A DNA stretch of 64,000 nt, taken from contig NZ_CANMVN010000007.1 in the NCBI RefSeq assembly GCF_947501425.1, positions 98,197 to 162,196 on the forward strand, given 5' to 3'. This document shows positions 6,261-39,908 of the stretch, one piece after another (within the stretch, counting starts at the first letter, position 1; every line of letters starts with the position of its first letter). Under the pieces are notes generated by a model. That model was not told where the DNA came from. It worked only from the letters and a program-made list of their open reading frames with translations, and did not search any database. Origin of the DNA: an uncultured Psychroserpens sp. Lineage in GTDB: Bacteria > Bacteroidota > Bacteroidia > Flavobacteriales > Flavobacteriaceae. A program made the translations under genes and the position numbers.

Positions 6261-6328
6261 ATCATTTATATTTTGATTTAGAAAGTTACAATTTCAGCAA
6301 TAAAGAAACGATACGCTTTATGACGTAT

Positions 6329-8275
6329 TTAATCAATTCTTATCTTTAAAGACATCTGTGTTCCTGCATTTATTTCAGAATTCAGTTCAATCTCTGCGCC
6401 TATATCATGAGCACGTTTTTTTATATTATTTAGACCGTTTCCTAACTCGACTTTAGTCATATCAAATCCTTTACCATCGTCGCTGACAGAAGCGTATACA
6501 AAACCCTCTCTTATGTCAAAGTCTACGGAAATATGCTTTCCTTCAGAATATTTAATTGCATTATTGATACTTTCCTGAATGATACGATAGATATTCATTC
6601 CTTCAACAGAGGTGAATTTTAAGTGTTCCACTTTTGAAGAATTAGAATTAAACTTAAAACTCATATCATCTGAGGCTAAATTTGCTTTTTCAACGAAATT
6701 AGATATTCTGGATTTAAGATCTTCAACTGATATTTCGGTTTTGTTCATGGCCCAAATCGTATCCCGCAATTCATAAATAGTTGATGTTGTGAACTGACTT
6801 ATTGTATTGAGTTTTGTATTCAATTTATCATCCTTGATATCAAAACCATATTTCAAATTATCAATAGAGGAAATAATGAAAGTCAGTTGGGCTCCAATAT
6901 TGTCGTGTAGATCTCTGCTAATTCTGAGTCGTTGTTCCTGCAAACGATTTTGAGTTTCTATTTTTAAGAGCGCGTCCTTGAGTTCATTTTCCTTAAGGAG
7001 TTGATTATTTTTGAGTTTTTGCTGATTATAGAACAAAAAACCCAAAAGTCCTAATAGTAAAGCAAATCCTATTGAACCATATAGCTGATAATTTTGTTTC
7101 TGGATGGTTAATTCTTGCTCAGCAATTTCAGCTCTTTGAACTAAAATTTCACGTTCTTTTTTTTCAGTTTCATATTTAATTTCAAAATCTGCAATAGCAT
7201 CAGCATTGTTTTTAGAAAAAACAGAGTCTTTCAATGTGAGAAAGTTTTGTCTATGCATTCTTGCTTTTGAAAAATTATTAAGCATGTAATGACTCTCTGC
7301 ACAGGTTAAATGTAAGTCGGCAGAAATAAGCTCAATTTCGGGATAGAGTTTTACCAATTCAAAGCCTTTTTTGGCATAGTTTAAAGCTACTTGAGGTTGG
7401 TTCATTTCGTTATATAATGCTGAAATATTATTTAGTGTTATTAATTCTGATTTTTGTTCAGAATCATAGTCCTCTGGTTTGCTCAAAGCTTTGAGGTAGG
7501 TTTGAAGTGCTAAATTAAGATTCCCATTTTCATTATAGGCATTACCAAGATTATCGAGTAGTTTATAATATTCGATCAAATTATTTTTTCGTTTAGCCAG
7601 ATCAATTCCTTTTTTATAAATCAAAATTGCCTCGTCTGTTCTCCCAAGATCTTTAAGATTAATTCCAATATTATTTAAGGATGTAATTTGTTCATTTTGC
7701 ATATCATATTTCTCTCTAATTACGAGAGATCGCTTATGATACTCCAATGCTTTTTCACTAAAATTCATTTCTTGATAAATAAGACCAATATTATTTAAAG
7801 ATACTGATGTAGACTTTTCATCACCTTTTTCCTCGTTCATTTTTAGAGCTTCAAAAAAATACTTCAATGCCTCATCATAATTAGCCCTGTTCCAATGATA
7901 CATCCCCAAATTATTAACACACATAGACTCTATGATATCAAATTTATAATCACGACTCATTTTGAGTGCCTTTTTAAAATAATATCCTGCAGAATCAGAT
8001 TTACCAGTAACATCCATATAAATACCATGTGTATTAGTAAGTTCTGTTAATCCAAAATTAAATTGGGCTGCTTTAGCTAATGTTTTACCTTCATTAATCA
8101 CCTCTATTGCCTTCTTAGTATCATTAAAAATATAGCTGAATGCTATTTTATTTAACATCCTGATTTTAGCAGAATCATTTTTTGTCTCTCTAGCAACAGT
8201 TAAAAGACTATCAAGATTTTGTGAGTAACTTACAGCATTTACGATGCACAAAAAAAATAAAAATGCAGGTCTCAT
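6329..8275 (-). CDS. TPR-repeat sensor histidine kinase (HisKA_3 type)
   Basis: Signal peptide, several TPR repeats (NNLG/NNIG), one TM helix, RISRDLHDNIG H-box, QESINNAIKYS / DDGKGF / GNGLNNIK ATPase boxes. Confidence 0.92.
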   Translation of the reverse strand: MRPAFLFFLCIVNAVSYSQNLDSLLTVARETKNDSAKIRMLNKIAFSYIFNDTKKAIEVINEGKTLAKAAQFNFGLTELTNTHGIYMDVTGKSDSAGYYFKKALKMSRDYKFDIIESMCVNNLGMYHWNRANYDEALKYFFEALKMNEEKGDEKSTSVSLNNIGLIYQEMNFSEKALEYHKRSLVIREKYDMQNEQITSLNNIGINLKDLGRTDEAILIYKKGIDLAKRKNNLIEYYKLLDNLGNAYNENGNLNLALQTYLKALSKPEDYDSEQKSELITLNNISALYNEMNQPQVALNYAKKGFELVKLYPEIELISADLHLTCAESHYMLNNFSKARMHRQNFLTLKDSVFSKNNADAIADFEIKYETEKKEREILVQRAEIAEQELTIQKQNYQLYGSIGFALLLGLLGFLFYNQQKLKNNQLLKENELKDALLKIETQNRLQEQRLRISRDLHDNIGAQLTFIISSIDNLKYGFDIKDDKLNTKLNTISQFTTSTIYELRDTIWAMNKTEISVEDLKSRISNFVEKANLASDDMSFKFNSNSSKVEHLKFTSVEGMNIYRIIQESINNAIKYSEGKHISVDFDIREGFVYASVSDDGKGFDMTKVELGNGLNNIKKRAHDIGAEIELNSEINAGTQMSLKIRID

Positions 8276-34577: not shown

Positions 34578-34639
34578 AATGAATGATTTTAATTTTAAAT
34601 TCGTTTGTCAATCGGCTTTTAATAATCGCCTCTTTATCC

Positions 34640-34668
34640 TTAAAACAACTCATTAAAAAAATGTCCCA
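34640..34668 (-). promoter_or_regulatory. Putative ECF sigma promoter TGGGACA-N12-GTTGTTTTAA for the lipoprotein operon
   Basis: Both boxes and the spacer length are identical to the site at 35254-35282. Confidence 0.72.
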
Positions 34669-34725
34669 AGAAAAAATAGATTTTTTTTTATTTATCTTTC
34701 TTGTGTAAAATCAAAAACTGAATTC

Positions 34726-35250
34726 TTGCCAAAATCATTGCATCAAGATATCTGCGACAAAATTCGCTTTTCAAAACTGTATGAAAAGTATGCTCAAACC
34801 TTGAGCAATATCTTATTTTACAAGTATGGTGAGCTCTTAAACCCGTCAGATAAGGTACAAGAAGCTTTTATTAAACTATGGGAAAACTGTGCTAAAATAA
34901 AACCAGAAACTGCAAAATCTTATTTGTACACAACAGCAAATAACATGATGCTTAATGAGGTAAAACATCAAAAAGTAGTTTTAAAATACCAACAAGTAAA
35001 ACCTAAAGATTATACAAATGAGTCTCCAGAGTTTATGCTACGGAAAAAAGAATTTCTTAAACGTTTTGAAACTGTATTATCTAGTTTAAAAGAGGAAGAG
35101 AGATCTGCGTTTCTACTTAACAAGGTTGATGGTAAAACTCATAAGGAAGTTGCTGAAATTTTAAGCATTACAAAAAAAGTTGCTGAACATAGGATTTATG
35201 CAGCTTTTAATAAACTTAAAAATGAACTTGAAGAGCTAAATCGAAAATAA
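34726..35250 (+). CDS. ECF RNA polymerase sigma factor (FecI-like)
   Basis: TTG start; region 2 (VQEAFIKLW, SYLYTTANN) and region 4 (LKEEERSAFLL..GKTHKEVAEIL). Confidence 0.9.
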   Translation: MPKSLHQDICDKIRFSKLYEKYAQTLSNILFYKYGELLNPSDKVQEAFIKLWENCAKIKPETAKSYLYTTANNMMLNEVKHQKVVLKYQQVKPKDYTNESPEFMLRKKEFLKRFETVLSSLKEEERSAFLLNKVDGKTHKEVAEILSITKKVAEHRIYAAFNKLKNELEELNRK

Positions 35251-35253
35251 TTC

Positions 35254-35282
35254 TGGGACAATTATAATTTAAGTTGTTTTAA
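35254..35282 (+). promoter_or_regulatory. Putative ECF sigma promoter TGGGACA-N12-GTTGTTTTAA for fecR-TBDR
   Basis: Identical architecture to 34640-34668; ends 17 nt before the FecR ATG. Confidence 0.72.
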
Positions 35283-38987: not shown

Positions 38988-39908
38988 TTAGTTATCATCC
39001 TCGTCTTCCTCTTCATCTAAGGTTACGATAACGCCTTCAGACTTGATATTAATAAAATCATATTGCGCCAAGTTTGGTAACTGTTTTTGTAATTCTACTA
39101 ATTCACCTTTAAAGTCATTATTTCCAATCAATAACACTTTTAAATTAACCAGATTAGCCATCTCGTTTGGCAACTTTCCGTAAAATGCATTATCAGAAAT
39201 TACTAATTCTTCAAGATGTACTAAGCTACAAATGGAGCTTGGTAAAGTTCCGAAGAAATTATTATCAAACACACTAAGTTTTTTTAAACCTTTAGCATTA
39301 GATAATGTGGATGGTAATTTACCTGAGAACTGATTACTACTTAGCAACATTTCTTTTAGGTTGACTAGGTTACCAATAGTAGATGGTAATTCTCCAGTAA
39401 TTTGATTATTGTATAATTCTAATGTTTTTAAATTTGATAATTGTCCGATCGATGTTGGAAGCTCACCTCCAATTGCATTCATGAACAATTTTAGTTTTCT
39501 CAAAGATTCTAATTCTCCTATTTCATTAGGTAAAGGTGCATTCAACATATTGAATGAAATATTCAATGTTTCCAAAGATTTTAAATTTGAAATCGTTGTA
39601 GGAATTGCTCCAGTAATCTTATTTCTAAAAAAATTGATATGTTTTAAATGAACTAGGTTTCCTAATTCCTCAGGAAGTTCGCCTCTAAGGTTATTGAATT
39701 CTAAATTAAGCTCAATAACTTTATCGTCTTTTACAACAACACCATACCATTCTTGTACAGGTTTTTCTAAATCCCAAGTTGTTCTCCAAAGATTTCCGTT
39801 TGTTGAGTTGTATAAGGCTTGTAAAGCTTCTTTTTCTTCTGTAGATACGCTACCAAAGGACAATAAGGCAACGAAACACATTAATAGTGTAATTTTAGCG
39901 GTTTTCAT
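38988..39908 (-). CDS. Secreted leucine-rich repeat protein (24-residue plant-type LRRs)
   Basis: Signal peptide; cap EKEALQALYNSTNG..W...W.GV; ~8 LxxLxLxxNxLxGxLPxxIGxL repeats; acidic tail. Confidence 0.88.
   Translation of the reverse strand: MKTAKITLLMCFVALLSFGSVSTEEKEALQALYNSTNGNLWRTTWDLEKPVQEWYGVVVKDDKVIELNLEFNNLRGELPEELGNLVHLKHINFFRNKITGAIPTTISNLKSLETLNISFNMLNAPLPNEIGELESLRKLKLFMNAIGGELPTSIGQLSNLKTLELYNNQITGELPSTIGNLVNLKEMLLSSNQFSGKLPSTLSNAKGLKKLSVFDNNFFGTLPSSICSLVHLEELVISDNAFYGKLPNEMANLVNLKVLLIGNNDFKGELVELQKQLPNLAQYDFINIKSEGVIVTLDEEEDEDDN

Follow-up and report, generated by a model that had tools for sequence, protein, structure and literature searches.

In the FecI/FecR/FecA system of E. 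coli, an ECF sigma factor is combined with a FecR-family regulator and a TonB-dependent transducer that has a signalling-domain fold; the sigma factor is not autoregulated and the regulon is local and very small (PMC9249621). FecI acts at the fecA promoter only; its own gene and fecR are transcribed together from a sigma70/Fur promoter. In the HasI/HasS/HasR(-HasA) system of Serratia marcescens, the sigma factor drives its anti-sigma factor and the receptor from a promoter placed before them and does not drive itself, an arrangement that is thought to shut off quickly, and an extracellular ligand-capture protein, the secreted haemophore, is co-regulated (PMC9249621). In the phylum Bacteroidota, the FecI-like groups ECF239 and ECF240, which take part in trans-envelope signalling linked to PULs, have SusC-like transducers, a gene order of sigma factor, FecR-like anti-sigma factor and TonB-dependent transporter (TBDT) with STN and NTE domains, and several paralogs per genome (PMC7826278). 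In a large covariation study, Todor et al. found FecI-like sigma factors to be over-represented among the ECF sigma factors without significant promoter predictions (PMC7776599), and Bacteroides thetaiotaomicron had no known ECF promoter motif as of 2020 (PMC7366714). Our literature search found no published description of the TGGGACA/GTTGTT motif that is the subject of this analysis. In Flavobacterium psychrophilum we found no FecR-type module, and none is covered by the published start map of that species.

The window analysed here is a stretch of 64,000 nt, in which genes for an ECF sigma factor, a FecR-type regulator and a TonB-dependent transporter follow each other on the forward strand and two lipoprotein genes diverge from them (Table 1). 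The ORF map and the domain scans agree with these five genes as they had been described from the sequence alone. What we observe are the sites listed in Table 1, their conservation, their class-specific co-variation with the sigma factor, and the domain content of the products. At the level of sequence, the locus shares with Fec an ECF sigma factor, a FecR-family regulator, a TonB-dependent transporter with a predicted signalling-domain fold, a sigma gene that is not its own target and a very small local regulon; it differs in that a predicted ECF promoter lies between the sigma gene and fecR and a second copy lies before the lipoproteins, and also in the letters of the −35 and −10 elements. 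With Has it would share the lack of sigma autoregulation, the promoter before anti-sigma factor and receptor, and the co-regulation of an accessory surface protein. It belongs to another phylum, however, and its promoter sequence is another one; the sigma gene stands between two predicted promoters that are identical and divergent, the accessories are acidic lipocalin-like lipoproteins instead of a secreted haemophore, and the transporter is predicted to have an extra SusC-type NTE domain. Phylum, gene order and the presence of several paralogs in the genome are as in ECF239 and ECF240, but the module has no SusD partner, no match to the SusC/RagA model and no glycan enzymes; when compared by the group descriptions, its lipocalin-like neighbours suit ECF239 better than ECF240. 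A SusC/SusD locus was also considered and rejected, as there is no SusD-like gene and no NCBIfam match for the transporter, of which only the NTE is SusC-like.

Table 1. Genes and predicted signals of the module, with positions in the window.
Feature	Positions	Strand	Details
Intrinsic-terminator-like hairpin closing the lipoprotein operon	32217-32189	-	13-pair stem, then TTTTTT
Acidic lipoprotein, 161 aa	32279..32764	-	ORF; one lipocalin-like unit
Acidic lipoprotein, 594 aa	32793..34577	-	ORF; lipobox LSMTSC; weak META match (Pfam)
Lipoprotein-operon site, ECF-type promoter (predicted)	34668-34640	-	TGGGACATTTTTTTAATGAGTTGTTTTAA; exact match
-35 of lipoprotein-operon site	34668-34662	-	TGGGACA
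Spacer of lipoprotein-operon site	34661-34650	-	
-10 of lipoprotein-operon site	34649-34640	-	GTTGTTTTAA; core TGTT
Candidate housekeeping (sigmaA-type) -7 box	34693..34700	+	TATCTTTC (TAnnTTTc), inside block TTTTTTATTTATCTTTC
ECF sigma factor, 174 aa, FecI-like Bacteroidota type	34726..35250	+	Pfam; TTG start
fecR-TBDR site, ECF-type promoter (predicted)	35254-35282	+	TGGGACAATTATAATTTAAGTTGTTTTAA; exact match
-35 of fecR-TBDR site	35254-35260	+	TGGGACA
Spacer of fecR-TBDR site	35261-35272	+	
-10 of fecR-TBDR site	35273-35282	+	GTTGTTTTAA
FecR-type anti-sigma factor / sigma regulator, 300 aa	35300..36202	+	Pfam FecR 1.9e-17, FecR_C 1.6e-14
TonB-dependent transporter, 834 aa	36189..38693	+	Pfam, Foldseek, N-terminal model

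A pattern search on both strands of the window for TGGGACA-N12-GTTGTTTTAA returned two exact matches. Twin identical sites flanking the sigma gene had been proposed in the sequence-only reading, and their positions, strands, 17 specified bases and spacing were all verified; the two sites are identical at 17 of 17 specified bases and in the 12-nt spacing, with the spacers themselves agreeing at 5 of 12 positions only. The reverse-strand site ends 62 nt from the ATG (34577) of the 594-aa lipoprotein gene, and the forward-strand site begins 4 nt past the sigma stop (35250), its end lying 17 nt short of the fecR ATG (35300). The genome-wide scan suggested there gave the full pattern at these two places only, and even on relaxing it to GGGACA-N11-13-GTTGT the two window sites are the only ones in the whole genome of 3,697,590 bp. 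Among 7.39 million positions the half-sites taken singly are found 203 and 48 times, from which about 0.001 joint matches would be expected.

Conservation was checked at orthologous loci in 16 other genomes that have a full-length ortholog of the 594-aa lipoprotein (the same-genus set; the protein records of the organisms read Psychroserpens or Winogradskyella). Both sites were kept in all 16, with (T/C)TGGGA(C/T)A and GTTGTTTTAA retained at constant spacing and a free 12-nt spacer. Of 29 loci from two paralog families, 26 have GTTGT at 22 nt from the fecR ATG and three at 21-24 nt; the distance from GTTGT to the lipoprotein ATG is 44-87 nt in the family of the window and mostly 40 nt in one paralog family. 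A wider set of 80 loci was obtained from a scan of named genomes with an alignment of the sigma factors, and spans Winogradskyella, Hyunsoonleella, Algibacter, Tenacibaculum, Zobellia, Flagellimonas, Aequorivita, Lacinutrix, Mariniflexile, Aquimarina and others. Using the loose pattern GG[AGT]-N14-[GA][TC]TGT, we found the site between sigma and fecR in 76 of these 80 Flavobacteriaceae loci (within 170 nt after the sigma gene), an oppositely oriented site upstream of the sigma gene in 64 (mostly 55-65 nt from the sigma start), and both in 62. From base composition about 0.02 matches would be expected by chance per 170-nt window, or about 1.5 in the 80 loci, and the background elsewhere in the loci agrees with this estimate (64 unclassified matches in ~1.1 Mb). 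The spacing does not vary among more than 200 sites, the sequence of the spacer is free, and the half-sites are conserved, with spacers and flanks diverged, in loci where sigma identity falls to ~55%.

ECF promoters typically follow the spacing GGAAC-N16/17-CGT or GTT. The geometry of the window sites becomes GGGAC-N16-GTT when the −10 element is taken as the second GTT of GTTGTT; the letters of the half-sites differ from the textbook GGAAC and CGT(C), with GAC in place of AAC and TGTT in place of CGT. Since the fecR site of a paralog module on contig C12 of the same genome retains TGTT alone of the downstream half, TGTT is taken as the −10 core. The earlier proposal of a bipartite promoter stands, but for the −10 element the reading TGTT is to be preferred to the whole GTTGTTTTAA. 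The behaviour of the sites in silico is that of bipartite, orientation-specific elements before genes, with conservation across genera and a free spacer, in line with what had been proposed; in loci with additional sites each extra copy precedes an extra gene in the correct orientation. TGTT also occurs at about −10 of mapped starts in non-canonical promoters of B. thetaiotaomicron, the 'PM2' promoters, which resemble the window sites in having elements near −30 and −10 (PMC12596196, PMC7366714). PM2 differs in being a broad near-palindromic motif of stationary-phase and oxidative-stress genes without an assigned sigma factor, whereas sites of the window type are specific to a module and have a defined −35 class for each sigma factor.

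The genome of the window (G000; in the following, L### denotes loci and G### genomes) has three further sigma/FecR/TBDT modules, each carrying a twin pair of its own at the two corresponding places. The −35 and −10 elements are TGGGACA and GTTGTT in the window module, TCAGGA(G/A)T and GTTGTT in module C2a, GTAGGGT and GTTGTC in module C2b, and GTAGGA(G/C) and (G/A)(T/C)TGTT in module C12. The sites match within a module; between modules the −35 half differs and the −10 half is common, a pattern that would be expected if the −35 element is read by region 4, which varies between the paralogs, and the −10 element by the conserved region 2. On comparing 110 loci, the −35 class was found to track a single residue in the helix of region 4.2 (...AE-X-RIY..., position 155 in the window sigma factor). 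Sigma factors with H155 go with a G immediately upstream of GGA (at both positions, in 41 of 41 sites each), those with Y155 mostly with CA before GGA, and those with K155 with TA. It may be noted that residue 155 changed only twice on the sigma tree, giving three clades, so the association is compatible with co-inheritance alone; a phylogenetically corrected test of the co-variation between residue and −35 class had one independent pair and no power. The genome G013 has no H-type sigma factor (best sigma match 56% identical), and its locus L015 (G013:C73:328348-333123) holds an ortholog of the 594-aa lipoprotein, 72% identical, beside a Y-type sigma/FecR pair, with a small lipoprotein behind the large one and with TCAGGAG (Y-type) sites. 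This reads as a natural swap in which the class of the site follows the neighbouring sigma factor and not the target gene, and it goes beyond co-inheritance. In L029 the two sites have unlike −35 halves, and the half at the lipoprotein site is H-like though the sigma factor is of Y type. A one-residue code, in which the choice of H, Y or K at position 155 would determine the bases before GGA (GGGAC, CAGGAG and TAGGA), is a tentative proposal that we hold to be somewhat doubtful. If true, three or four paralogous modules could run in one cell without cross-talk and, with feedback on the anti-sigma factor and not on the sigma factor, would form natural, readable orthogonal promoter/sigma pairs for Bacteroidota.

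We also scored the whole genome with a weight matrix built from 99 H-class sites, leaving out the window locus. The lipoprotein site scored 42.0 bits and the fecR site 41.3 bits. The next-best positions are sites of the Y class, with 26.4 bits at module C2a and 23.6 bits on contig C6, and all other positions of the genome have at most 14.5 bits. By these scores the H-type sigma factor of the window has exactly two candidate promoters and the Y-type paralog three, one of them remote, so that the regulon can be read from the genome. The remote site is an unlinked one of the TCAGGAG class at ~132,680 (-) of contig C6, and lies ~50 nt upstream of a gene for a 141-aa lipoprotein (MKKVFLILLTVTLFNCSSDD...). 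This gene probably belongs, as a remote member, to the regulon of the Y-type sigma factor encoded on contig C2.

Taken with the ECF-like geometry, the two sites are very probably promoters read by RNA polymerase carrying the sigma factor that is encoded between them. They might instead be real elements read by another ECF paralog or by a classical DNA-binding regulator of both divergent units, which would fit with the co-variation amounting to just two evolutionary events and with the hint of possible cross-talk given by the H-like −35 half beside a Y-type sigma factor in L029. We consider this improbable, as the two halves are unlike each other and have a direction, which would be unexpected for a dimeric regulator, the spacing is that of an ECF promoter, each paralogous sigma factor in the genome has its own matching pair, the site class in G013 follows the neighbouring sigma factor, and the module has no further conserved regulator gene. 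Chance identity, or a recent local duplication of functionless AT-rich intergenic DNA, is easier to imagine in a genome with 34% G+C and intergenic DNA of low complexity, but the expected number of matches given above and the retention of the half-sites against diverging spacers and flanks, down to the lowest sigma identities, make it a very unlikely explanation.

The inverted copies bracket a 586-bp segment with exactly one gene, as would the arms of an invertible sigma segment or the termini of a small mobile element. In recombination sites, however, conservation extends over the whole length, whereas the 12-nt spacer within these arms is unconserved; also, directly oriented copies, each followed by a gene, number three to five in many loci, one copy stands alone and unlinked, and the arrangement is syntenic and stable across genera. 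An inverton was thus rejected, both for the incomplete conservation of the arms and for the lack of a recombinase among the neighbours, and DNA rearrangement in general is hardly to be believed.

Returning to promoters read by the local sigma factor, the protein itself contains regions 2 and 4 only (Sigma70_r2 1.1e-9 and Sigma70_r4_2 1.5e-10 in Pfam) and has ...KKVAEHRIY... (H155) in its region 4.2 helix. Among NCBIfam models it matches Sig70_bacteroi1 (6e-24) and FecI models (~1e-11), all below the cut-offs. Its TTG start is confirmed by orthologs: in L005, L017 and L033 the corresponding codon is ATG. That the sigma factor does not switch on its own gene had been proposed, and it is upheld here at sequence level, for the motif is absent upstream of the sigma gene on the strand of that gene in every ortholog examined, and a conserved sigmaA-like −7 box is found instead. 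An alignment of the regions upstream of H-class sigma genes showed block TTTTTTATTTATCTTTC to be conserved ~25 nt before the start codon; the TATCTTTC inside it is one letter off TAnnTTTG, the housekeeping −7 consensus of Bacteroidota (PMC7366714, PMC9723704), and we infer that it may serve as the sigmaA box of the sigma gene. A scan for sigma70-type hexamers gave matches no commoner than in shuffled sequence, this consensus not being applicable to the phylum. As no terminator-like hairpin was found in the 49-nt gap between sigma and fecR, the basal sigma transcript probably reads through into fecR and the transporter gene.

FecR has one membrane helix at residues ~72-92, and the transporter ORF overlaps its gene by 14 nt. 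The earlier view that the sigma factor switches on the transducer is kept in so far as the forward-strand site precedes the transporter gene, but fecR comes first; as this site would drive fecR first and the transporter behind it, the anti-sigma factor is itself a predicted sigma target. The transporter was also said to carry an STN domain, which Pfam does not detect in it (it gives CarbopepD_reg_2 and a weak Plug match); no NCBIfam model matches it, SusC/RagA included, none of 120 homologs has a precomputed STN match, and searching the PDB with a profile made from N-terminal domain sequences gave noise only. The full-length AF2 model is poor (pLDDT 58), with a barrel that matches TonB-dependent transporters in Foldseek, and the N-terminal 150 residues were therefore modelled separately. 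The model of residues 23-172, made with 37 relatives from the fetched loci, has a pLDDT of 93. Its first domain (beta-alpha-beta-beta-alpha-beta-beta) matches the FecA signalling domain 1zzv (E 7e-3, TM 0.70, target-normalised) and also a secretin N-terminal domain, and its second domain matches the SusC NTE 9hfj (E 2e-6). The N-termini of relatives give weak matches to Pfam FecR_C in 17 of 38 cases (best 4e-6) and to STN in 4 of 38. The STN-bearing transducer is thus not borne out by Pfam, while the FecA-like fold of the model and the weak FecR_C and STN matches in relatives speak for it. The evidence leans towards a layout, at fold level only, of signal peptide, STN-like domain (~28-95), SusC-type NTE/CarboxypepD_reg (96-169), plug and barrel. 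Tail-to-tail with the transporter gene lies a gene for a 306-aa leucine-rich-repeat protein with a signal peptide (38988-39908, -); no motif was found upstream of it, and the protein is probably outside the module.

On the divergent side, the 594-aa protein consists of an N-terminal domain common to the paralog modules and C-terminal lipocalin-like repeats, to which the 161-aa protein is 38% identical. The gene of the latter lies 28 nt behind that of the former, no motif was found in this gap by pattern or weight matrix, and the two genes are probably co-transcribed. Homologs of the 594-aa protein are annotated as 'hypothetical' or 'lipocalin-like', and our searches found no PDB or informative Pfam relatives of the lipoproteins. 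The leader of the operon (34578-34639, -) has two blocks conserved among orthologs, AATAAAGAGGC and AAACGAAC, and a possible hairpin of 3-4 bp (GGC...GCC, sometimes GCC...GGC or GGTT...AACT); RNAalifold gave no consensus RNA structure for it.

In the circuit that we infer, from transcription starts and sigma dependence to signal path and ligand, region 4 of the sigma factor would bind (T)GGGAC at −35 and region 2 a TGTT-centred −10 element 16 nt downstream. One promoter would drive fecR and the transporter gene, and the divergent one the 594-aa and 161-aa surface lipoproteins. In the basal state sigmaA would transcribe the sigma gene with read-through into fecR and the transporter gene, the ECF promoters giving the induced expression. 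By analogy with described systems, a ligand may bind the transporter, perhaps handed over by the lipoproteins, which may capture it at the surface; as in FecA/FecR/FecI and HasR/HasS/HasI, the signal would pass via the STN-like N-terminal domain to FecR and the sigma factor would be released. The freed sigma factor may then amplify sensor, transporter and lipoproteins, and as it would also amplify its own anti-sigma factor, a self-limiting response is to be expected.

For a FecI-like subfamily of marine Flavobacteriaceae this gives an unusually clean promoter rule, with three −35 classes that track one residue, and it connects an acidic lipocalin-like lipoprotein family with TonB-dependent uptake and signalling. 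The rule permits regulon assignment in hundreds of marine Bacteroidota genomes and lends itself to simple specificity swaps. The remaining biology is the expected logic of cell-surface signalling with ECF promoters, which is already known; the value of the analysis lies in the class-resolved promoter rule and the regulon assignments made from it.

Some related loci deserve mention for what their sites precede. In the K-class module of G000 (L033:4526-4650, equal to ~21,019-21,150 of contig C12) the divergent site is kept with no gene after it; ~90 nt past the site is a strong terminator hairpin (AAAAGGATTGTTGGCTACAACAATCCTTTTTT), followed by the start of ffh. The same site in other genera precedes a ~380-aa lipoprotein, and the orphan site may be either a relic of gene loss or the promoter of a short sigma-dependent RNA. 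The divergent lipoprotein of the third paralog module (L032:4751-6229 and 6311-6790, on contig C2 of G000) has 492 aa, with repeated Cys-rich units that resemble Kazal-type inhibitor domains (…CVEITAPDGQSFVVTYPNACYAQCDGF…) and then a lipocalin-like end; a Dps-like gene lies after it on the opposite strand. In four loci (L004:3300-3700, L017:1100-1410, L015:1050-1460 and L005:3300-3720) the stretch that separates lipoprotein and sigma genes contains a third site, which precedes a ~78-aa ORF for a predicted coiled coil without a signal peptide (e.g. MHSTSEVISKITLLKKEEIFHCKRKIKKLEVLLEKEH...). This ORF is ~100 aa long and more divergent in L015, has a premature stop in L005, and is absent from the window. 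In L048 (Winogradskyella sp. R77965; 1750-2500 and 3010-3200) three tandem cassettes of ~206 bp lie upstream of the lipoprotein gene, each consisting of an H-class site and a 37-41-aa ORF (MHTTLNEVLVQLKLESSNYNPNMSNVLQELQTKGLKY), and two sites stand in series between sigma and fecR; a similar site array is present in L052.
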